7,745 bases of DNA, taken from contig NZ_JANQOY010000213.1 of the NCBI RefSeq assembly GCF_028285565.1, positions 1-7,745 on the forward strand, in the 5' to 3' direction. A program made the position numbers and the translations under genes. This document shows, piece by piece, positions 1 through 7,745 of the stretch (the first letter of the stretch is position 1; each line of letters starts with the position of its first letter). This DNA comes from Acaryochloris sp. IP29b_bin.148 (GTDB lineage Bacteria; Cyanobacteriota; Cyanobacteriia; Thermosynechococcales; Thermosynechococcaceae). The notes below the pieces were generated by a model. The model had not been told where the DNA came from. It made no database searches and saw only the letters and a program-made list of their open reading frames with translations.

Positions 1-341
1 GAGCACATCTGGCCGATCATGATTTGGACCAAGAGACAACAGACATTAATTTTGCCAAACTCTGTGAAAGTAGCCGTACCGTTCTAGCACTCTTCCCTAT
101 GATGGCCGAGGTGAGGATTGTCAGAACATGGGCAGGGTTGGAAGCCTTTATGCCCGATCACATTCCTGTGATTGGTCCAAGTTCTAAATTCCCCAATGTT
201 TATCATGCGTTTGGGTTCTCTGCACATGGCTTTCAGCTTTCACCTGTGGTGGGGCGCATTATGTCAGAGCTGATTTTGGAACAGAAGAGTTCCCTCAGGA
301 TAGAACCATTTGCTATTCAGCGCTTCTCATCTATTTCTTAA
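1..341 (+). CDS. FAD-dependent oxidoreductase (DAO / glycine-sarcosine-D-amino-acid oxidase family), C-terminal fragment. The gene starts upstream of the window.
   Basis: The frame (codon phase from nt 3) is open from the window edge, so the TTG at 24 in the ORF track is not the real start. The C-terminal block 'VRTWAGLEAFMPDHIPVIGP...VYHAFGFSAHGFQLSPVVGRIMSELIL' matches the conserved C-terminal FAD-binding end of DAO-family flavoenzymes. Stop TAA at 339-341. Confidence 0.7.
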   Translation, partial: AHLADHDLDQETTDINFAKLCESSRTVLALFPMMAEVRIVRTWAGLEAFMPDHIPVIGPSSKFPNVYHAFGFSAHGFQLSPVVGRIMSELILEQKSSLRIEPFAIQRFSSIS

Positions 342-387
342 TAGGGTTAATTGAAAATATCAGAGTTGGTCATCAAAGTAACCTCCA

Positions 388-1038
388 TCATCCTACCCAG
401 ATCTCTTGGTCATAAAACCCTCCTCGCTGTTCCATCCGAAAGCCCCCCAGAAGCACCCCGATCAATACAGCAACAGGCACTAAGCCAAGCCCTTGCACCA
501 GCTCCACAAACGACACGGCACCCTTAGTTCCTTCTAAATATTCACGAATTGCACTAACCCAGGACGAAACATCCTCCACATGGCTAACCTTCAGGGCAAT
601 CGCTTCCCCAGACTCCAGCTCATCCACAAACTCCAAAACCGAATCCTTGCTGACTTCCCTTACAACGGACTCAATAGGATTCCCCGTGAACCCCTGACGT
701 CGCTTCCGTGACTTCGGCTGACGACACAGATCCGAGACATCCAAAAACATGGTCTGCTGAACCATCCCGGCCAAGAAATCCTCATCTAACACTGGGCCTT
801 GGGTGTTATGCCGATCCTCCCAATCCTGGATCAGCAGCTCTGCCCGCTGACAAAATACCTCAGTAATCCCAAGGGCCATCTCGCCAGCGACTTGGAGCCG
901 TTCGTGCTGAGATAGGGCTTGCAACTCTGGCAACATCCCATCCCAGAGCTGAAGGACATCTGCCTGCTCCGGTTCATCCAAAGCGGTGGCCAATGTACTG
1001 GCAAAATCTAGTTCAAGCTGAGTGTACATGGAGTTCAT
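388..1038 (-). CDS. Hypothetical protein (216 aa), acidic. The C-terminal about 45 aa resemble a kleisin/ScpA-type winged-helix tail.
   Basis: Long ORF whose start overlaps the upstream minus-strand ORF by 26 nt, suggesting translational coupling. An alternative ATG at 1029 would give a 17-nt overlap. The C-terminus 'VSFVELVQGLGLVPVAVLIGVLLGGFRMEQRGGFYDQEIWV' follows the pattern F-x-eL ... hydrophobic helix ... Q...F..eI.v seen at ScpA/kleisin C-termini. I recognise no other family. Confidence 0.55.
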   Translation of the reverse strand: MNSMYTQLELDFASTLATALDEPEQADVLQLWDGMLPELQALSQHERLQVAGEMALGITEVFCQRAELLIQDWEDRHNTQGPVLDEDFLAGMVQQTMFLDVSDLCRQPKSRKRRQGFTGNPIESVVREVSKDSVLEFVDELESGEAIALKVSHVEDVSSWVSAIREYLEGTKGAVSFVELVQGLGLVPVAVLIGVLLGGFRMEQRGGFYDQEIWVG

Positions 1039-1540
1039 CCTTCAACGGACAGTCCGCGATTTCGCACTCGGTCGGCTCCATGCGGATCGGGGGTTCAAAT
1101 TCCGTGATGCCAAACCGCTCTCGCAGTACTTTCAGCACCTCTATTAGGTACCGATTCACTTGGGTATTCGTCATCCCCATGCAGTGAACCGCCTCAATTT
1201 CCGCTAACTTCTCACTCCCCTGCCAGATGCTGATGGATAGGGCATGAAGGTGGGCATCCTTGGGCTTCTCCTTGTAGAGGTAAAGCAAAGCCACGGGTGG
1301 AGCTTGGACAGGAATCGAGAAGGTCTCTGTGGTTTTGGCTGGGGTTGTTTTTGCTTTCTGGTCAGCGTATTCTCCCCGGCGCTTGGCATTGCTTTCCTTG
1401 CGGTGGCGGTAGTGAGAGCGTTTGCGATCGCAGGTATTATCTTTCCAACAACCATCGCCTTGGGGACCATGCACCCGCTTGGCTTCCCTTCGGGAATAGT
1501 CGATGCATTTGAGACAGATTGGGTTAGGGGGAAGTGGCAT
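1013..1540 (-). CDS. Hypothetical protein (175 aa) with an N-terminal Cys cluster (possible zinc ribbon), a strongly basic linker and a C-terminal helical region.
   Basis: N-terminus 'ICLKCIDYSRREAKRVHGPQGDGCWKDNTCDRKR' has CxxC...Cx6C. A Lys/Arg-rich segment follows. The ORF is coupled by overlap to the downstream 388-1038 ORF. Three alternative-frame ORFs cover the same DNA, so the frame choice rests mainly on the coupling and on composition. Confidence 0.5.
   Translation of the reverse strand: MPLPPNPICLKCIDYSRREAKRVHGPQGDGCWKDNTCDRKRSHYRHRKESNAKRRGEYADQKAKTTPAKTTETFSIPVQAPPVALLYLYKEKPKDAHLHALSISIWQGSEKLAEIEAVHCMGMTNTQVNRYLIEVLKVLRERFGITEFEPPIRMEPTECEIADCPLKDELHVHSA
1424..1431. repeat. 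HIP1 octamer GCGATCGC (highly iterated palindrome of cyanobacteria), single exact copy.
   Basis: Exact GCGATCGC read at 1424-1431. It serves only as a taxonomic hint. Confidence 0.6.
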
Positions 1541-1852
1541 GGTTCGTTCTTTTGGATCAATACCCGTGATAGATCATCAAAATCGAGGGGCTGACAGGAC
1601 TCAATCAAATTTGTTAGCCATTAAAAAGCCCTTAAAAAGGCAATTATTTCCATCTCCAACAACGCCCTAGATTACAGAAATATCCTTAATAATTGCGTAA
1701 AGCATATCAAAAGTGCCGATAATTTTAGATGCGATTAAATTAAATTTCAAAATAGCGCTCCGTCACCATTAGCAATCTATTGCAGGCTGCCAGTTCTAAA
1801 CGCTCAACCAAATGGAAAAAAGACAACAAAATATCGCTTAGATTAACGCCGA

Positions 1853-2968
1853 ATGACGAGTCCGAACCCACCAGAACAGCAAACCATTCTCTTCCTCGCT
1901 GCGAATCCCAAAGATACTCAGCCTCTCCGACTAGATCAGGAGTTAAGGGATATTGGTGAGGGGTTACAGCGGGCTCAACGTCGAGATGAATTTCAGCTTG
2001 AACAGCGCCTGGCAGTTCGCCCCCGTGATATTCAGCGAGCCATGCTAGATCTGAATCCCCAGATCGTTCATTTCTCAGGGCATGGGGAAGGGGATGAGGG
2101 CTTGGTCTTTGAGGATGTCAGTGGCAACACCCAGTTGGTCAGTGGTGAAGCGATTGCAGACTTGTTTAGCCTGTTTGCCGATCAACTGCGCTGTGTGGTC
2201 CTCAATGGCTGCTATACCGAGGTGCAAGCAAATGCCATCTCAGAACATATCCCCTATGTGATCGGTATGAAACGTGCGATCCAGGATAAAGCGGCGATCT
2301 CCTTTGCTGTGGGATTCTATGATGCCCTAGGTTCAGGACGAGATGTGGAGTTTGCCTTCAAGTTGGGTTGCGCCGCTATCCGCATGGAAGGTATTGAAGA
2401 ACATCTCACCCCCGTTCTGATCAAAAAACCCATTACAGAAAGAACTAAGGATCAGGATAAGAGCAATGCTCAAGCTCGTCCAACACCCACGCCTTCTCCC
2501 ATGACTCAAAACGCCAACGACCCCTTAGAGGTTTTTATTTCCTATTCCCATCAGGATAATGAATTGCGAAAAAAGTTAGACACTCATCTTTCAGGTCTTA
2601 AACGCGAGGGTAATATTGTCGCTTGGCATGATCGGGCGATTGAAGCAGGGGAGGAATGGGACACCCAAATTAAAGGCCATCTTGAGTCTGCTCAAATTAT
2701 TCTGCTGCTGGTTAGCCCGGACTTCATCGCCTCCGACTATTGCTATGACATTGAGATGCAAAGAGCGATGGACCGACACAACGAAGGCACAGCTCGAGTC
2801 ATCCCCATTATTCTGCGTCCCTGTGATTGGAAGCGATCCCCTTTTAGTAAGCTGCAAAGCCTACCTAAAGAAGGACTACCCATCACACGATGGGACGATC
2901 AGGATGAGGCATTTTTGGATGTCGTCAATGGAATACGGAGGGCGGTAGAAACCCCACCAAAAAAGTAG
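1853..2968 (+). CDS. Fusion of a caspase-like (minimal CHAT) protease domain and a TIR domain, 371 aa as an isolated ORF. It is probably the N-terminal part of a larger CHAT-TIR-NB-ARC-TPR protein.
   Basis: aa 11-185: the hydrophobic strand 'ILFLAANP' is followed by 'IVHFSGHG' (His77, nt 2081-2083) and 'VVLNGCYT' (Cys120, nt 2210-2212). This is a caspase/CHAT-style strand-His-Gly ... strand-Cys dyad. aa 195-222: Pro/Thr-rich linker. aa 225-365: 'EVFISYSHQD', 'IILLLVSPDFIASDYCYDIE' and 'VIPIIL' form a TIR_2-like domain with a putative catalytic Glu301 (nt 2753-2755). The ORF ends CCA AAA AAG TAG. Confidence 0.85.
   Translation: MTSPNPPEQQTILFLAANPKDTQPLRLDQELRDIGEGLQRAQRRDEFQLEQRLAVRPRDIQRAMLDLNPQIVHFSGHGEGDEGLVFEDVSGNTQLVSGEAIADLFSLFADQLRCVVLNGCYTEVQANAISEHIPYVIGMKRAIQDKAAISFAVGFYDALGSGRDVEFAFKLGCAAIRMEGIEEHLTPVLIKKPITERTKDQDKSNAQARPTPTPSPMTQNANDPLEVFISYSHQDNELRKKLDTHLSGLKREGNIVAWHDRAIEAGEEWDTQIKGHLESAQIILLLVSPDFIASDYCYDIEMQRAMDRHNEGTARVIPIILRPCDWKRSPFSKLQSLPKEGLPITRWDDQDEAFLDVVNGIRRAVETPPKK
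2959..2965 (+). promoter_or_regulatory. Candidate -1 recoding site: slippery heptamer A_AAA_AAG immediately 5' of the TAG stop. It is also an A6 homopolymer prone to indels.
   Basis: Zero-frame codons are CCA AAA AAG TAG, so the X_XXY_YYZ heptamer is A AAA AAG, the same heptamer used at the E. coli dnaX -1 frameshift site. A -1 slip, or one extra A, continues as GTA GAC AAC ... in the NB-ARC frame. That frame is open from 2908 to 5409. Confidence 0.45.
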
Positions 2969-3117
2969 ACAACTCTTCGTCTGGGCACAGTCCACAAACG
3001 GAGAGTTATCAGCGTCAAGGACCAGAAGCCTCGTCATCCTCCCAGATAAGTCCTCCTCATAACCTCCCTCGCAGTGGTGTCGTTGAATTTGTCGGTCGTG
3101 ACCAAACACTGCTCGAA

Positions 3118-5409
3118 TTGCACCAGCTCCTCCAAGAGAACAATCCGGTAGCCCTCACCGCATTAGCAGGAATGGGTGGGATCGGTAAGACAGAACTCGC
3201 CCTGCAATATGCCATCTCCCAGCTCGATCAGGGTCATTATCCTGGTGGACTCTGCTGGCTGCGAGTAAAAGGCCAGGAGCTAGCCGCCCAAATTATCGAA
3301 TTTGCCCAGACCAAGTTAGCACTGCCCCTCCCGGATGAACTCGATGAAGACCAACAAGTGAGTTATGTCTGGGGGCACTGGCCTGCTGGAATGGTGCTGA
3401 TTATTTTTGATGATGTGATGGACCTTGAGACTGTCCAACCGTACTTACCGCCATCAGATCCACGTTATAAAGTTCTGATAACAACCCGTCAGGATTTAGG
3501 TCTATCCGTTCATTCCCTCTCTATCACCGAACTTAGCGATACTAGTGCCTTAACCTTGCTGAGAACGCTACTTGGAGCCGAACGCATTGATGCTCAGCTT
3601 GACGATGCCCAAGCCTTATGTAGATGGGTGGGGAACCTGCCCTTAGGACTAGAGTTAGTGGGGCGGTATCTAGCCAGAAAGCCAGACTGGTCTCTTCGAA
3701 AACTGATCGAAAGACTTGACTCCAAGCGATTAGAAGCCAAAGCCCTGACGACCCCAGAATCAGGAATGACCGCACAGCTTGGGGTCGCTGCTGCGTTGGA
3801 ATTAAGCTGGGTTGAGCTGAATAAGGTAGAACAAGAACTGGCCTGCTTTCTAGGAATGTTTGCGGTTGCACCTATTCCTTGGATTTTGGTTGAAAGCTGC
3901 CTATCTGCACAGGATTTAGATGACTTAGAAGACACCAGAGATGATGGTTTGATCGCTAGAAACTTACTCAAACGAGTAGACCAGGGTACTTACCAACTCC
4001 ATCAAATTATGCAGGAGTTCTTTCGGATTAAGTTGAATAAGCGCTCTGACAATGGAGAATTTCTCAAAGCAGCTTATTGCAGGGAAATGGTTGGTGTTGC
4101 TCTGGGTATTAATGACAGCCCAACGTTTGATGTGATTACAGGTATGAGTACCAGCATTCCCCATCTAGAAGAACTCGTCAAACAGTGGATAGACCATCTT
4201 AGCGAAAATGAATTGATTTGGCCCTATGTCGGCATCGGTCGATTTTATGAAGGGCAAGGGAACTATGGTTTAGCTTTACCCTGGAGACAAAAATGCCTGG
4301 AACAGGCTCGAAAGAAATTGGGTACCGAACACCCCGATGTTGCTCAATGCCTCAATGACCTGGCAGTACTCTACAACAATCAAGGACGGTACAACGAAGC
4401 CGAACCCCTCTATGTGCAAGCCTTGCAGATGAATCAGAAGCTCTTGGGTGCCGAACACCCCGATGTTGCAACGAGCCTCAATAACCTGGCAGTACTCTAC
4501 GACAATCAAGGACGGTACAACGAAGCCGAACCTCTCTATGTGCAAGCTTTGCTGATGAGACGGAAGCTCTTGGGTACCGAACACCCCTATGTCGCAACGA
4601 GCCTCAATAGCCTGGCGGAACTCTACAGAGCCCAAGGACGGTACAACGAAGCTGAACCCCTCTATGTGCAAGCCTTGCAGATGAGACAGAAGCTCTTGGG
4701 CTCCGAACACCTCGATATTGCTGAAAGCCTCAATGACCTGGCATTACTCTACTCCGACCAAGGACGGTACAACGAAGCCGAACCCCTCTATGTGCAAGCC
4801 TTGCAGATGAACCAGAAGCTCTTGGGCACTGAACACCTCGATGTCGCAACGAGCCTCAATAACCTGGCATTACTCTACGAAAAACAAGGACGATACAACG
4901 AAGCCGAACCCCTCTATGTGCAAGCCTTGCAGATGAGACAGAAGCTCTTGGGCTCCGAACACCCCTATGTCGCTCAAAGCCTCAATAACCTGGCATTCTA
5001 CTACTCCGACCAAGGACGGTACAACGAAGCCGAACCCCTCTATGTGCAAGCCTTGCAGATGAGACAGAAGTTCTTGGGCATCGAACACCCCTCTGTCGCT
5101 CGTAGTCTCAATAACCTGGCAATACTCTACGACAACCAAGGACGGTACAGCGAGGCCGAACCCCTCTATGTGCAAGCCTTGCAAATGTACAAGAAGCTCT
5201 TGGGCACCGAACACCCCTCTGTCGCTCGTAGCCTCAATAACCTGGCAAAGCTTTACTATAACCTAGGACGGTTCTCAGAAGCTGAAACCCTCTATGAGCA
5301 AAGTTTAGATATATTCCAGAAGCTCTTGGGCACCGAACACCCAAATACAGTTAAAGTTCAAAGTAATTTTGACGATTGTCGTCAAAAAATAAAGGAGTCG
5401 AATACTTAG
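3118..5409 (+). CDS. NB-ARC (STAND P-loop ATPase) protein with a C-terminal array of nine 42-aa TPRs (kinesin-light-chain-type, TPR_10/TPR_12-like). The true N-terminus almost certainly lies upstream of 3118.
   Basis: P-loop GMGGIGKT (3169-3192), Walker B LIIFDDV (3397-3417), RNBS-B-like VLITTR (3472-3489) and GLPL-like GNLPLGLELVG (3631-3663). A helical/winged-helix region follows, then TPRs from about 4240 to about 5350. The same frame is open back to 2908 and encodes 'HNLPRSGVVEFVGRDQTLLEL' at 3058-3120. This is the usual leader preceding the P-loop in cyanobacterial NB-ARC proteins. The only start-like codon before the P-loop is TTG at 3118. Confidence 0.9.
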   Translation: MHQLLQENNPVALTALAGMGGIGKTELALQYAISQLDQGHYPGGLCWLRVKGQELAAQIIEFAQTKLALPLPDELDEDQQVSYVWGHWPAGMVLIIFDDVMDLETVQPYLPPSDPRYKVLITTRQDLGLSVHSLSITELSDTSALTLLRTLLGAERIDAQLDDAQALCRWVGNLPLGLELVGRYLARKPDWSLRKLIERLDSKRLEAKALTTPESGMTAQLGVAAALELSWVELNKVEQELACFLGMFAVAPIPWILVESCLSAQDLDDLEDTRDDGLIARNLLKRVDQGTYQLHQIMQEFFRIKLNKRSDNGEFLKAAYCREMVGVALGINDSPTFDVITGMSTSIPHLEELVKQWIDHLSENELIWPYVGIGRFYEGQGNYGLALPWRQKCLEQARKKLGTEHPDVAQCLNDLAVLYNNQGRYNEAEPLYVQALQMNQKLLGAEHPDVATSLNNLAVLYDNQGRYNEAEPLYVQALLMRRKLLGTEHPYVATSLNSLAELYRAQGRYNEAEPLYVQALQMRQKLLGSEHLDIAESLNDLALLYSDQGRYNEAEPLYVQALQMNQKLLGTEHLDVATSLNNLALLYEKQGRYNEAEPLYVQALQMRQKLLGSEHPYVAQSLNNLAFYYSDQGRYNEAEPLYVQALQMRQKFLGIEHPSVARSLNNLAILYDNQGRYSEAEPLYVQALQMYKKLLGTEHPSVARSLNNLAKLYYNLGRFSEAETLYEQSLDIFQKLLGTEHPNTVKVQSNFDDCRQKIKESNT
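4255..5388 (+). repeat. Tandem array of nine 126-bp units (intragenic) encoding the TPRs.
   Basis: The landmark 'caaggacgg' (or a variant) recurs at 4255, 4381, 4507, 4633, 4759, 4885, 5011, 5137 and 5263, an exact 126-nt period. The 49-nt core 'ggacggtacaacgaagccgaacccctctatgtgcaagccttgcagatga' is exact at 4384, 4762 and 5014. It has 1 mismatch at 4636 and 4888, and about 3-4 at 4510 and 5140. The first and last units are diverged. Confidence 0.95.
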
Positions 5410-5559
5410 CTATCTGTTGATTAATAACATTAAGTGCGTAGTAATTTTATATAACTGAAATTTTTTATTTTATTCTATTGCCAAAAATTGAACCTCAGTA
5501 AATTCGTCAACCGAAGTATTAATTTTGTACATCTATGCTGTCCATTATTTCTTTACATA

Positions 5560-5733
5560 GGTCTTGGCCCTTTTTGAAACTGGTGGCGAAACATTGCTTA
5601 ACACGCTTAAAACACTTATATTGCATCATCAGCTATGAAAGAAAATTATAGTTTTGTAATGACATCAATGGCGGAATAAGTTTCCTAGACATTAACAAAT
5701 ATTTCGCCACCAGTTTCAAAAGAGGACAAGACC
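5560..5733. mobile_element. MITE-like hairpin element A (about 174 bp): 32-bp terminal inverted repeats around an AT-rich non-coding core of about 110 bp.
   Basis: Left arm 5560-5591 is 'ggtcttggccctttttgaaactggtggcgaaa'. The reverse complement of the right arm 5702-5733 is 'ggtcttgtcctcttttgaaactggtggcgaaa', giving 29/32 matches. I saw no transposase ORF and no clear target-site duplication. Confidence 0.5.
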
Positions 5734-5743
5734 CAACTTATGG

Positions 5744-6055
5744 TTAAAACCACAGTGTTTACGACACTACTGTCGTTGTCACCATAACCTTGCCGTTTTT
5801 TGAAAGCATAACCTTGCCGCTGCTAAGCCTGAAAGCCCTATTTTTTCGTTAAATCCATACTTACGATTGTAAACAGCCTGAAATCATAAAGTTGCCGAAA
5901 GTCGGATTTGTAAGCATAAGCTTACCGAAAGTTTTACTGAGAAATTGCTGAAAGCATTAATATCTCGTAGAAAGTCTTCAACGTATCCGGTAAATGACAC
6001 TCAAGCGGCAAGCTTATGCTTTCAAACGGCAAGGTTATGGTGACTGTGGTTTTAA
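5744..6055. mobile_element. MITE-like element B (about 312 bp): composite terminal inverted repeats of about 50 bp beginning TTAAAACCACAGT.
   Basis: The right arm (6005-6055), reverse-complemented, is 'ttaaaaccacagt caccataaccttgccgttt gaaagcataagcttgccgc'. The left arm (5744-5820) carries the same three blocks with one mismatch. It also has a 21-22-nt insertion that forms a small hairpin (acgac-actact-gtcgt) and three extra T. Both ends abut the palindromic TTAA. Confidence 0.5.
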
Positions 6056-6384
6056 GTAAAAGCTGACCGATCAATTAAACCAAAAGCTGTCCGCTTAAAG
6101 GCTGAAAACACTGATTTCTCGTTGACAGCTTCTTTGGAGTGGAATCGATCTTGCACTTAGAACTACTAATTCATTGGAATTTAACCATAAGATGTCCGAA
6201 AACCCAATCCTAGAATTGTAAAACGCTAAAAGCTATTTCCCATAATGATTTCACGTCCTAAAACCTATACATAATCTAACGAGAATACGTTGTTTTAGCG
6301 TATTACTCCATCTCCAAGAGGGTATTTTAGGCGGTTTATCACTTAGCTTTAAACCAATTACTGTCCTAGACGGTCAACTTTCCT

Positions 6385-6412
6385 TTAAAACCACAGTGAC
6401 AGCGACAACTAC
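6385..6412. repeat. Solo third copy of the element-B terminus (TTAAAACCACAGTG plus a related subterminal sequence).
   Basis: 'ttaaaaccacagtg' at 6385-6398 is identical to 5744-5757, in direct orientation. The next about 14 nt are partly similar ('gcgacaactac' against 'acgacactac'). I found no matching inverted partner downstream. Confidence 0.5.
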
Positions 6413-6435
6413 AGAAGTCAGTCGGGGAAACACGG

Positions 6436-6459
6436 TTTTTCGTGTAATTTTTCGTGTAA
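6436..6459. repeat. Perfect tandem duplication of the 12-mer TTTTTCGTGTAA.
   Basis: Read directly: 6436-6447 is identical to 6448-6459. Confidence 0.8.
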
Positions 6460-6487
6460 TACAGATAAGAAGAATTATTTGGAGTAG

Positions 6488-6526
6488 GAAAAATGGCAAA
6501 AATACCCCTTCAGGTAGGGGAAGGGG
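6488..6526 (-). terminator. Candidate rho-independent terminator of the toxin-antitoxin operon (minus strand).
   Basis: 7-bp GC-rich stem CCCCTTC (6505-6511) / GAAGGGG (6520-6526) with an 8-nt loop. On the minus strand it is followed by 'tatttttgccattttt' (complement of 6488-6504). It lies about 87 nt downstream of the toxin stop codon. Confidence 0.55.
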
Positions 6527-6612
6527 CTTGAAACGTGATTTTGGGATTTTCGGGGAGTAATGGCTTTGCTGAAATCTAGACTTTTGCCTATGGTTTGAGT
6601 GTCCGTTGCTCT

Positions 6613-7116
6613 CTATACGACACGTTTAGGGAGTGGATCGATTAAGGTAAGGGGAACATCAGGCAACTCTAAGAAACCACACTTATCGCGGTAAAAGGCA
6701 AAGGCGTTTTCATCCTTAGCTCTGACAATCAGAACTCGAACTCCGATCACATCGGCAGCAAGGAGAGTCTGAGCAACGGCATGATTGACTAGACCTCGTT
6801 CTAAACCTAAACCTTCATACCTCTGATCGACTGCTAATCGACCTAAAACGACGGCTGGAACTGGATCAGGTGCATTCCGCACTACCCGATTCGGTAGCCA
6901 TTGGCGTTGTACACTACCCGCAGACAAGCAATAATAGGCAACTACCTGATTTGACTTTTTTAGAGTAACTACAAAGACTCTGGAATATCCATAGCCATGA
7001 TTGTGCTTGGCCTTCTTTTGCAGCCAGGTATTGAGGATCGTGCTACTACTTTCAAAGGCTGACAGATCATGCTGCTCACCCAAAACCGTTGGCGGGTTAA
7101 AGGTTAACTTTCCCAC
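6613..7116 (-). CDS. GNAT-family N-acetyltransferase toxin of a type II TA system (TacT/KacT-like, partner of a DUF1778 antitoxin).
   Basis: 167 aa. It shows the typical layout of DUF1778-associated GNAT toxins: 'HDLSAFES...LNTWLQKKA', 'VVAYYCLSAGSV', 'PAVVLGRLAVDQRYEGLGLERGL' (acetyl-CoA binding region) and 'AFAFYRDKCGF'. Its start overlaps the antitoxin stop by 13 nt. Confidence 0.85.
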   Translation of the reverse strand: MGKLTFNPPTVLGEQHDLSAFESSSTILNTWLQKKAKHNHGYGYSRVFVVTLKKSNQVVAYYCLSAGSVQRQWLPNRVVRNAPDPVPAVVLGRLAVDQRYEGLGLERGLVNHAVAQTLLAADVIGVRVLIVRAKDENAFAFYRDKCGFLELPDVPLTLIDPLPKRVV

Positions 7117-7385
7117 GGTGCTTTATGTTCTTGTAAGGCTTTCCGGGCTGAGGAAGGTGGAGGAGGATTGTCTAAAATCTCCATAAAGGTATCCCACCCG
7201 CCATTCGACAGATAAAAAGTCGTCTGACCTAACAATAGTTCTTGGGCTTCTCGATAAGATGCATCTACCATGAACTCAGTTCTGGTCTTGCCTGCAACAG
7301 CCGCAGCTCTGTCGATGACATCTCCACGATGCGGATCAACTTTGAGATTGATCTTCTTCTTAGTGCTTTGAGTTGAAGCGGGCAT
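7104..7385 (-). CDS. DUF1778 (ribbon-helix-helix, TacA-like) antitoxin.
   Basis: 93 aa. 'INLKVDPHRGDVIDRAAAVAGKTRTEFMVDASYREAQELL' matches the DUF1778 RHH pattern. It sits upstream of, and overlaps, the GNAT toxin gene, which is the classic antitoxin-first operon order. An AGGAA Shine-Dalgarno-like sequence lies a few nt before the ATG. Confidence 0.85.
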   Translation of the reverse strand: MPASTQSTKKKINLKVDPHRGDVIDRAAAVAGKTRTEFMVDASYREAQELLLGQTTFYLSNGGWDTFMEILDNPPPPSSARKALQEHKAPWES

Positions 7386-7409
7386 GCTCTATTCCTGGTC
7401 CAGGTTTGT

Positions 7410-7424
7410 AGGTACATTGTACCT
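7410..7424. promoter_or_regulatory. Perfect palindrome AGGTACA-T-TGTACCT, candidate operator for autorepression by the RHH antitoxin.
   Basis: Two 7-bp arms are exactly complementary around one central nucleotide. The site lies 25-39 nt upstream of the antitoxin start codon, in the divergent intergenic region. Confidence 0.45.
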
Positions 7425-7562
7425 CTATGTTTAGTTTATTGCTAATTTGAATCTGAGTCTTAACATCTTATGCAGCAAGGGCACGTCGCACAGTTGTTTG
7501 GACTAGAATCTCCATGTATGGCATTCCAACCCATCACAGCGTCCTGATCCTAGGCTTTTCCA

Positions 7563-7745
7563 ATGACCGTCCCCGAAGTAAAACTCATTGTATTGGCGGA
7601 CCAGGCCGCTACCCCCATTGATGCTGCCCGGTCCCGAACCCAACCCCTAAAAACTACCCCAGCGGATCTGCGATGGATGAGAGTGGAAGAGTTTATGAGG
7701 TCTCGTGAGATTAGCTCCAACACTCGCAAAGCCTATGAACGGGAC
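7563..7745 (+). CDS. Tyrosine recombinase / phage-type integrase (XerC/XerD-like), N-terminal 61 aa. It continues beyond the window.
   Basis: The ATG at 7563 is preceded by an in-frame TAG at 7551, and the frame is open to the window end. 'RVEEFMRSREISSNTRKAYERD' matches the core-binding (SAM-like) N-terminal motif F..R.LS.NT..AY.RDL of tyrosine recombinases. This ORF is not in the supplied track because it is truncated. Confidence 0.6.
   Translation, partial: MTVPEVKLIVLADQAATPIDAARSRTQPLKTTPADLRWMRVEEFMRSREISSNTRKAYERD

Follow-up and report, generated by a model that had tools for sequence, protein, structure and literature searches.

How does a bacterium make an NLR-like receptor when the effector half and the NTPase half are written in different reading frames? 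The question is raised by a locus in a 7,745-nucleotide stretch of Acaryochloris sp. IP29b_bin.148 (contig NZ_JANQOY010000213.1, positions 1 to 7,745; hereafter the window). The list of open reading frames (ORFs) of the window contains two large ORFs on the same strand, 1853-2968 (371 aa) and 3118-5409 (763 aa, with a TTG start); the first encodes a CHAT (caspase-like) domain and a TIR domain, and the second falls in an NB-ARC NTPase followed by tetratricopeptide repeats (TPRs). The first-pass annotation described these modules as lying in one transcriptional direction with no gap. The common direction holds, but the two halves are out of frame with each other (1853 is in frame 2 and 3118 in frame 1) and are linked only through a conserved -1 slippery site. 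Judging from the sequence, we consider it probable that the locus is an NLR-like (STAND) conflict gene of a plasmid-borne type which yields two isoforms via programmed -1 frameshifting.

ORF1 (1853-2968, + strand) ends at a TAG stop codon (2966-2968) and would give, as its zero-frame (termination) product, a CHAT-TIR effector of 371 aa and 41.8 kDa. The NB-ARC-TPR frame is open from 2908 to 5409, overlapping the 3' end of ORF1. When ATG, GTG and TTG codons were sought in this frame from 2908 onward, none was found until TTG 3118, which lies inside the NB-ARC domain, 3' of the conserved NLPRSGVVEFVGR motif and of NLPRSGVVEFVGRDQ, and no Shine-Dalgarno (SD)-like sequence precedes it. Since initiation at TTG 3118 would remove the conserved NLPRSGVVEFVGR N-terminus, the second frame has no usable start before the P-loop. 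The motif aligns with in-frame residues of the single-ORF homologues P0002 and P0005, and NLPRSGVVEFVGRDQ is translated as the beginning of the NTPase module in these two proteins and in a normally initiated paralogue, L098.

The 3' end of ORF1 reads CCA AAA AAG TAG (2957-2968), a -1 heptamer of the type used by dnaX and the IS3 family followed by a stop. The heptamer A_AAA_AAG (2959-2965, + strand) stands in the X_XXY_YYZ phase of ORF1 (codons CCA AAA AAG), the zero-frame stop abuts its 3' end, and a slip of -1 would give AAA AAA GTA GAC and continue uninterrupted into NB-ARC-TPR. Being in the zero-frame phase at the point where the coding potential changes frame, it qualifies as a candidate -1 frameshift site. 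A_AAA_AAG is the shift site of dnaX and one of the most shift-prone heptamers in E. coli (PMC5009743). The predicted -1 product (1853-5409, that is, 1853-2965 joined to 2965-5406) is a CHAT-TIR-NB-ARC-TPR protein of 1185 aa and 133.5 kDa whose conceptual translation contains no internal stop, and which is 49% identical to the single-ORF protein P0002 over 100% of the 824 aa tested. Its junction peptide would read ...PPKK|VDNSSSGHSPQTESYQR (...PPKK-VDNSSSG...) and lead into a Ser/Pro-rich linker, VDNSSSGH...NLPRSGVVEFVGRDQ (2965-3105, + strand), which holds no start codon and would be coding only when entered from ORF1. An exact-protein look-up of ORF1 and of proteins P0006 and P0011 gave no match, whereas the NB-ARC-TPR product has an identical counterpart among the nr entries, from Acaryochloris sp. 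IP29b_bin.148.

Six related copies (L001-L006) match the junction region over its whole length with 84-87% DNA identity, and with the window they form the set of seven Acaryochloris loci compared here. All six lie on large MOBF plasmids, five typed as conjugative and one as mobilizable, in A. marina MBIC11017 (pREB7 and pREB8), A. marina S15 and Acaryochloris sp. 'Moss Beach'. The string A AAA AAG TAG and its phase are identical in all seven loci, with a variable preceding codon (CCA, ACA or CTA), and the NB-ARC frame is open across the heptamer in each. From the stop to the P-loop, the NB-ARC frame holds no start codon that is conserved among the seven; the first start in the paralogues is a CTG, a TTG or an ATG internal to the P-loop. 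Pairwise Nei-Gojobori counts across the seven copies gave ratios of nonsynonymous to synonymous differences (pN/pS) of 0.21 in CHAT-TIR and 0.24-0.26 in NB-ARC; in the linker, taken as 47 codons of the -1 frame, the ratio is 0.44. The CHAT-TIR half, the linker and the NB-ARC half are all under purifying selection. As a control the ratios were taken in all three frames. Upstream of the heptamer a coding signature is confined to the ORF1 frame (0.23), with values of at least 0.94 and 20-29 stops in the remaining frames, and downstream of it the -1 frame gives 0.44 with no stops and the other two 0.74 and 1.45, with stops. The coding signature thus changes frame at the heptamer. The full-length downstream frame (722-890 codons) is kept in five of the seven copies.

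More distant relatives show the same organisation. A genome scan found the same offset between TIR and NB-ARC frames in a Stenomitos metagenome-assembled genome (MAG; L017) and in the Acaryochloridaceae SU_2_1 MAG (L025); their NB-ARC domains are 51-60% identical to that of the window and their linkers are unalignable, yet their CHAT-TIR frames end ...TCA/ACA AAA AAG TAG. A search with ORF1 returned 5,429 homologues at E<=1e-30, and 60 of the 83 top homologues of 350-380 aa have a KK C-terminus. Besides L017 and L025, the heptamer was found in L022, L023, L063, L099, L105, L106, L018, L101 and L087, and the stop right after it is TAG or TAA in every heptamer locus. The modules reached through the -1 frame differ. 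In L022 and L023 (Elainellaceae) and in L099, heptamer and stop are followed by a -1 frame into an AAA_16 P-loop NTPase of about 300 aa (Pfam 3e-8) whose called GTG start cuts the FFGRRR motif; in L105 the -1 frame leads into a 1158-codon NB-ARC-APAF1_C-WD40 protein (NB-ARC 2e-30), in L063 (Prochloraceae) into a 235-aa TPR protein and in L106-109 into a truncated AAA_16 remnant (L099 and L105 are from metagenomic cyanobacteria). The form NNA_AAA_AAG is present in 12 of the 14 lineages ending in xKK* (x = P, T, S, L or A), against about 5% expected from codon usage in the same genes (binomial p 2e-14, uncorrected for phylogeny), and in 1 of 14 internal KK dipeptides. In L088 and L102, whose downstream gene starts at an ATG of its own, non-slippery AAG AAG codes for the two last lysines.

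Other cyanobacteria encode CHAT-TIR-NB-ARC-TPR proteins of about 1125-1132 aa in a single ORF (P0002, P0004 and P0005), and further in-frame fusions are P0056 (CHAT-TIR-AAA_16) and P0034/L089 (CHAT-TRADD_N-TIR-FGE-sulfatase), the latter reading ATT AAA AAA GTA GAT in frame as KKVD. These proteins show that the fused form occurs naturally and that a contiguous KK-VD reading is possible. The paralogue L098 (P0018), by comparison, has a normal ATG that overlaps the stop of the previous gene (TAAATG) and is ignored by the annotated start; starting there would lengthen the protein by about 146 residues, among them an N-terminal domain of some 115-120 aa, which suggests that the frameshift is specific to CHAT-TIR-linked genes. 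In three Nostoc MAGs (L026, L027 and L028) CHAT-TIR ends ...NSL-TAA, a GTCAAAAAAGTAGA string lies a few codons 3' and no -1 ORF follows, as if a nonsense mutation had cut off an ancestral ...SKK* end together with the slippery site, leaving GTCAAAAAAGTAGA as a putative vestige. A metagenome DNA scan with the pattern AAAAAAGTRR N65-95 AAYCTNCCNCNNAGYGG, which was too strict, gave only 7 chance matches, none of them in a CHAT-TIR context.

The RNA 3' of the heptamer was analysed for structure. A hairpin predicted at 2968-3010 (+ strand; free energy -19.7 kcal/mol, z -3.6) is a candidate 3' frameshift stimulator. Its two outermost pairs begin at 2968, 2 nt past the heptamer, and its main stem, a continuous 10 bp plus a 5-bp apical stem, begins at 2971, 5 nt past it; a stimulatory structure of dnaX/IS3-type sites would be expected 5-9 nt downstream. 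None of 200 shuffled sequences was equally stable, and the stability lies in the top 0.6% of 500 50-nt segments of the same locus. The hairpin hardly varies within the Acaryochloris clade, where L004 shows one U.G to C-G change, and between clades the sequences are unalignable. Stable hairpins starting 2-7 nt 3' of the heptamer occur in unrelated sequences, among them an 11-bp hairpin 6 nt past the heptamer of L025 (z -3.2). Ranked against local windows, hairpin stability gave a Fisher p of 0.003 over 12 lineages, and controls without a -1 ORF or without the heptamer (L087, L089, L088, L102 and L019) gave z -0.2 to +1.3, with no stable hairpin in the first four. An Rfam scan of the window at gathering thresholds matched no family. 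In L017 (1490-1549) a 4+5-bp stem (GUCC.CAUCA / UGAUG.GGAU) was seen about 6 nt past the heptamer, with a loop, UUGGCAC, complementary to a downstream GUGCCAA; this arrangement, noticed post hoc, could be an H-type pseudoknot.

Upstream of the heptamer, a 17-nt block, ATACGGAGGGCGGTAGA (2934-2950, + strand), which encodes IRRAVE, is invariant in all seven Acaryochloris copies, with zero synonymous variation, and holds an SD-like GGAGGG (2937-2942) 16-17 nt 5' of the heptamer. It is possible that the block or its SD-like element acts as a frameshift stimulator. Because the block is identical also in the in-frame relative L089, the constraint acts on the nucleotide sequence itself, and the frameshift model by itself does not account for it. 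A general role of an SD-like GGAGG as 5' stimulator found no support: outside the group of Acaryochloris, L017 and L089 it is absent or differently spaced.

The two halves were then characterised by profile, structure and motif, and the domain calls are far beyond chance. In ORF1, Pfam recovers CHAT (PF12770, 1.2e-9, residues 11-165) and TIR_2 (6.6e-18, residues 227-336), and PADLOC profiles recover 'chat' (2e-27), ThsB1 (1.3e-62) and SAVED_CHAT (3e-7). An AlphaFold2 model of ORF1 (mean predicted local distance difference test 76) matched in Foldseek the activated SAVED-CHAT filament 8tl0 (E 1.4e-12), followed by caspase-4, -11 and -9 and CED-3 (1e-5 to 1e-4); a sequence search of the PDB also returned 8tl0 (phmmer 2.4e-15), together with the TIR domains of TLR, Cat1 and RPS4. 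The residues singled out by the first-pass annotation, H77, C120 and E301, show no variation across 23 aligned homologues. On the + strand they are encoded at 2081-2083 (His77, the catalytic His of caspase/CHAT, motif HFSGHG), 2210-2212 (Cys120, the catalytic Cys, motif LNGCY) and 2753-2755 (Glu301, the conserved TIR glutamate, motif DIEMQ). With this modelled fold and the His...Cys dyad, the N-terminal part of ORF1 is assignable to the caspase/CHAT proteins (peptidase clan CD), and the remainder, with its fold and conserved catalytic glutamate, to the TIR domains, predicted to act as an NADase or signal synthase.

The downstream half carries an NB-ARC (STAND) NTPase module with a helical region (3061-4215, + strand; Pfam NB-ARC 1.1e-12; PF00931 score 48.3 bits against a cutoff of 23.5). 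The P-loop GMGGIGKT (3169-3192), whose lysine is K24 of the second listed ORF, as had been noted, and K446 in the numbering of the fused protein, is followed by Walker B LIIFDD (3397-3414), the TTR motif LITTR (sensor-1; 3475-3489), the GLPL motif GNLPLGL (3631-3651) and an LHQ (MHD-like) motif, YQLHQI (3991-4008), with a conserved His in the winged-helix region. The presumed sensor consists of nine TPR_12/TPR_10 repeats (4216-5409, with the stop at 5407-5409; Pfam TPR_12 1.4e-156, 9 stretches). Eight tandem 126-nt (42-aa) TPR units at 4192-5373 are mutually 84-89% identical in DNA (repeat family D1), and the TPR copy number differs among paralogues; such a pattern suggests that the sensor repeats have recently undergone unequal recombination or homogenisation, as in highly repetitive fungal NLR sensors. 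Motifs, Pfam profile and C-terminal repeat sensor place this half among the STAND NTPases of the NB-ARC (AP-ATPase) type. The domain content claimed by the first-pass annotation, including the nine TPRs, was thus recovered by Pfam and PADLOC profiles, Foldseek and motifs, and so was its assignment to the NLR/STAND-type conflict genes, with CHAT and TIR effectors, an NB-ARC NTPase and a TPR sensor. Its further label, Avs-type, was not: at E<=0.01 no Avs or AVAST model of PADLOC-DB v2 matched the 833-aa NB-ARC-TPR translation, whose only matches were a generic TPR model (1.9e-24) and PDC-M71B (5e-4).

Several other explanations for the two frames can be weighed against programmed frameshifting. 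Two separate proteins might be made without recoding, NB-ARC-TPR being initiated independently (at TTG 3118 or CTG 3109) or by termination-reinitiation and cooperating in trans as EAD-coupled pairs do. Many of the relatives do consist of two genes, each with a start of its own: in L088 a CHAT-EAD1-TIR gene precedes an EAD1 gene, in L102 an FGE-sulfatase gene follows and in L087 an iSTAND gene; the downstream ORFs are annotated from TTG, CTG or GTG codons, and in L105 a GTG lies upstream of the NB-ARC domain. However, the available starts would delete the conserved N-terminal motif (NLPRSGVVEFVGR or FFGRRR), no start is conserved from the stop to the P-loop, TTG 3118 has no SD-like sequence before it, and the 47 codons ahead of these starts look coding in the NB-ARC frame and hold no stops in seven copies. 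Independent initiation would also leave the conserved NNA_AAA_AAG phase unexplained, and we regard it as unlikely. Transcriptional slippage, in which RNA polymerase would add one A in the A6 run and create a subpopulation of mRNA with fused frames, accounts for exactly the required frame change, and such realignment at homopolymeric runs is used by bacterial insertion sequence (IS) elements and by Thermus dnaX. Efficient realignment takes runs of about 8-9 bases or longer, though, and the A6 run is shorter; a slipping polymerase would, moreover, need neither the strict X_XXY_YYZ phase nor the conserved G that follows the run, the zero-frame stop next to it or a 3' hairpin at the spacing of a frameshift stimulator, all of them features of ribosomal -1 shifting. 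We hold this explanation to be very unlikely.

We give the same low standing to a decaying pseudogene, that is, an ancestral single ORF that has been frameshifted and whose downstream part is non-functional but undegraded, with an assembly error in the A run as a variant. Single-ORF homologues exist, additional truncations are seen in L003, L005, L025 and L106, and homopolymer runs are prone to indels. Against decay, independent complete genomes and MAGs (MBIC11017, S15, Moss Beach and several MAGs) all show this state, the 2.4 kb downstream are open with a pN/pS of 0.24-0.26 at a pS of 0.2-0.3 in five of seven copies, and the arrangement recurs with unrelated downstream modules. Since the run has the same length in the in-frame relative L089, the difference in frame is not a run-length indel; sequencing error and phase variation in the A run were ruled out, as A6 is present in all loci including L089 and the state is common to independent complete genomes. 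Programmed frameshifting is favoured over these explanations because of the missing start, the frame-specific selection, the strict phase of the heptamer and its recurrence with unrelated downstream modules. Some observations do weigh against it. The NB-ARC-TPR frame is truncated in two of the seven copies (L003 and L005) and has extra breaks in L025, which suggests that some copies are decaying. The heptamer occurs also at CHAT-TIR 3' ends followed by a short -1 frame (32 codons in L087, 15 in L101, 35 in L018 and 82 in L106), so the string is partly ancestral or vestigial, inherited with the TIR 3' end, and its presence alone is no proof of use; the enrichment statistic, moreover, ignores shared ancestry. 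Several lineages give modest z-scores for the hairpin, and L017 lacks a significant predicted one; the SD-like element lies 16-17 nt upstream of the heptamer instead of about 10 nt and is unconserved outside the clade. Finally, the defence role is drawn from homology, and the NTPase half matches no STAND or Avs model of PADLOC.

How the locus might work can be sketched from these features. It would be a single transcription unit of an Acaryochloris replicon with two overlapping reading frames. Most ribosomes would stop at TAG 2966 and release a 42-kDa effector-only CHAT-TIR protein, and a fraction would slip -1 on A_AAA_AAG (2959-2965), aided by the neighbouring stop and the 3' hairpin (2968-3010), and read through the Ser/Pro-rich linker into NB-ARC and nine TPRs to complete a 133-kDa receptor. 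If the receptor behaves as characterised STAND/NLR systems do, its TPR array would bind a ligand derived from an invader and its NB-ARC module would oligomerise. The clustered TIR domains (by NAD+ cleavage or signal synthesis) and the caspase-like protease would then be activated, leading to abortive infection or cell death. The free short isoform may join the assembly via homotypic CHAT or TIR contacts; its recruitment into a nucleated assembly is plausible because the CHAT filament 8tl0 and the Cat1 TIR filament are among the PDB matches, and the assemblies formed by TIR domains in general make it plausible as well. An antiviral function is suggested by homology.

It is tempting to speculate further that the A_AAA_AAG-stop is a conserved 'recoding adaptor' by which CHAT-TIR can be plugged in before any NTPase/sensor module, fixing the ratio of free to tethered effector. 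The rare long isoform would nucleate a filament or oligomer that recruits the abundant short isoform and amplifies the signal, a covalent alternative to death-domain/EAD adaptors, and the ratio could respond to infection-induced translational stress or to attack on tRNA-Lys. The tRNA-Lys complement sets the shiftiness of AAG. Since shifting on AAA_AAG depends on tRNA-Lys, the isoform ratio could respond to infection, and frameshifting would then be part of sensing. We hold this extended proposal to be doubtful as it stands.

The frame organisation has consequences for annotation. In plasmid copies with both halves annotated, these are entered as two genes, a 'TIR domain-containing protein' and a 'tetratricopeptide repeat protein'; the second half is split in two in L003 and unannotated in L005. 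The public NTPase starts (6001 in L001, 5607 in L002, 5619 in L004 and L006, 5706 in L099 and 4090 in L098) are CTG, TTG, GTG or P-loop-internal ATG codons that cut the NTPase domain short, and in every public annotation examined the NTPase halves have truncated, probably wrong N-termini (TTG, CTG or internal ATG). Because of these N-termini, and of names that go no further than 'tetratricopeptide repeat protein' or 'NB-ARC domain-containing protein', the NTPases are missed or misclassified by genome-mining tools.

The surroundings of the gene had been described as a defence or mobile island with a toxin-antitoxin (TA) module, repeats resembling miniature inverted-repeat transposable elements (MITEs) and an integrase. 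The TA module was found at 6613-7385 on the - strand, as a GNAT acetyltransferase toxin (6613-7116; Acetyltransf_1 1.2e-5) and an overlapping TacA-type antitoxin (7104-7385; PF08681, 1.5e-19). The repeats were likewise found, within an AT-rich spacer (5409-6613), as nested inverted-repeat elements at 5560-5733, 5778-6044 and 6040-6400, with arms of 42 nt (86%), 21 nt (100%) and 30 nt (83%). For segments 5572-5718 and 5774-6044 one match each, at 86-90%, was found on other Acaryochloris plasmids (pREB1 and an MBIC10699 plasmid); the elements are MITE-like and low in copy number in the plasmid collection. There is no integrase ORF in the window, and one related plasmid copy has an integrase nearby. 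The case for an island is weaker than claimed; the neighbours are the TA pair, the small inverted-repeat elements and other NLR-like genes, on conjugative megaplasmids.

Upstream, two hypothetical ORFs on the - strand, divergent from the NLR gene and without Pfam or PADLOC matches, overlap each other (388-1038, 216 aa; 1013-1540, 175 aa). An equal-sized (528-nt) hypothetical counterpart of the 175-aa ORF lies at the same position in five of six plasmid copies, and in L002 a second overlapping hypothetical gene is annotated past it; the two ORFs may be part of the same cassette. At 24-341 (+ strand) lies the C-terminal part only of an FAD-dependent oxidoreductase (Pfam DAO positions 280-353, 4.4e-16), presumably a gene cut by the window edge or a fragment. 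In the plasmid copies a gene of about 1290 aa encoding a CHAT-NB-ARC-WD40 (Apaf-1-like) protein stands directly upstream of CHAT-TIR, after the divergent 175-aa ORF, and this gene is absent from the window. The window at 958-2428 resembles L002 97-1559 (about 78%), that is, the upstream flank and the CHAT 5' end of the CHAT-NB-ARC-WD40 gene, and at 1880-5160 it resembles L002 4381-7661, the CHAT-TIR/NB-ARC-TPR unit (likewise in L001 and L004). These two matches suggest that the window is a deletion derivative formed by recombination between two CHAT-coding 5' regions. A gene of the same NB-ARC-WD40 type precedes CHAT-TIR also in L102 and L106-109, so the short isoform might work with that neighbour.

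Turning to known systems, the profile searches proposed earlier (CHAT PF12770, TIR_2, NB-ARC and TPR, with PADLOC) recovered every domain, and the combination proved not to be unique. Apart from the single-ORF proteins P0002, P0004 and P0005, fusions of TIR or caspase effectors to STAND NTPases whose sensors are TPR or WD40 repeats have been described in multicellular bacteria (Kaur, Burroughs, Iyer & Aravind 2020, 2021; PMC7159879, PMC8195603), and cyanobacterial Apaf-1 homologues with N-terminal caspase-like proteases are also on record (PMC13581612). The systems of Kaur et al. share with the window locus an N-terminal enzymatic effector, a central STAND NTPase and a C-terminal repeat sensor; they are abundant in cyanobacteria, and their effector and NTPase are either fused or in neighbouring genes. 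In those bacteria separate genes are coupled in trans by EADs or death-like adaptor domains (PMC8195603; PMC7159879), whereas neither half of the window locus has an EAD match in Pfam, so that it is not an EAD-coupled pair, and coupling would run via the conserved -1 slippery site. In the close relatives P0051, P0059 and L088, by contrast, both genes encode EAD1 (PF19955). The word 'frameshift' does not occur in the main text of PMC8195603.

The Avs receptors follow the same tripartite logic of effector, STAND NTPase and sensor, the sensor recognising conserved phage proteins and the receptor oligomerising on binding (PMC13581612). The window locus differs in its NB-ARC NTPase of the Apaf-1/plant R-protein type, in its two stacked effectors and in the lack of a PADLOC Avs/AVAST match at E<=0.01. 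Plant TNL receptors (TIR-NB-ARC-leucine-rich repeat) share the TIR-NB-ARC order, the conserved catalytic TIR Glu and TIR sequence similarity (to RPS4 and AtTIR), but the window gene has TPRs in place of leucine-rich repeats and an extra N-terminal caspase-like domain, is prokaryotic and occupies two frames; the similarity is at the domain level and no orthology is indicated. Type IV Thoeris likewise unites a TIR protein and a caspase-like protease in one immune system (Rousset et al., bioRxiv 10.1101/2024.10.24.620036 / Science 2025), and the window TIR scores 1.3e-62 on the ThsB hidden Markov model. There the two are separate proteins linked by diffusible N7-cADPR with no STAND NTPase; in the window both domains are on one polypeptide upstream of NB-ARC-TPR, with no signal-binding domain detected on the CHAT part. 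The locus falls outside Thoeris types I-IV, there being no gene in the window for a ThsA-type effector that would bind the TIR-made signal (SIR2-SLOG, Macro-TM or caspase-like with a sensor domain) and no PADLOC matches to its other ORFs. Among solved structures, the SAVED-CHAT protease of type III CRISPR (8tl0) comes closest to the N-terminal domain, in fold as in sequence, and shares its His/Cys dyad; 8tl0 is activated in a filament, whereas the CHAT of the window is shorter (about 190 aa), lacks a SAVED sensor and is fused to TIR.

For the recoding itself the nearest parallel is the -1 frameshifting of dnaX, found also in orfAB of the IS3 family (PMC5009743), with an identical heptamer and phase and, as predicted here, a 3' hairpin after a short spacer and two products; a 5' SD-like element belongs to that type as well. 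The dnaX shift leads to the shorter product (gamma), whereas the window shift would lead to the longer fusion, as in IS3 transposases and phage G/GT, and the SD-like element of the window, at 16-17 nt, is not general. In a literature coverage that was incomplete, which leaves novelty unproven, we found no relevant paper on frameshifting in STAND, TIR, CHAT or NB-ARC genes or in Acaryochloris; the domain architecture is of a known kind, and the conserved recoding appears to be new. Bacterial NLR-like/STAND receptors have so far been treated as single polypeptides or as adaptor-coupled gene pairs. If our reading is true, effector-only and effector-receptor isoforms made by frameshifting from one mRNA would be a third mode of coupling, bacterial immune receptors would join the short list of cellular (non-mobile-element) genes with -1 recoding, and the stoichiometry of effector to sensor in NLR-type assemblies would gain a testable handle. 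The stacking of TIR and caspase-like domains on an NB-ARC scaffold is widespread in cyanobacteria and bears on the links among bacterial, plant (TNL) and animal (Apaf-1/caspase) immunity.

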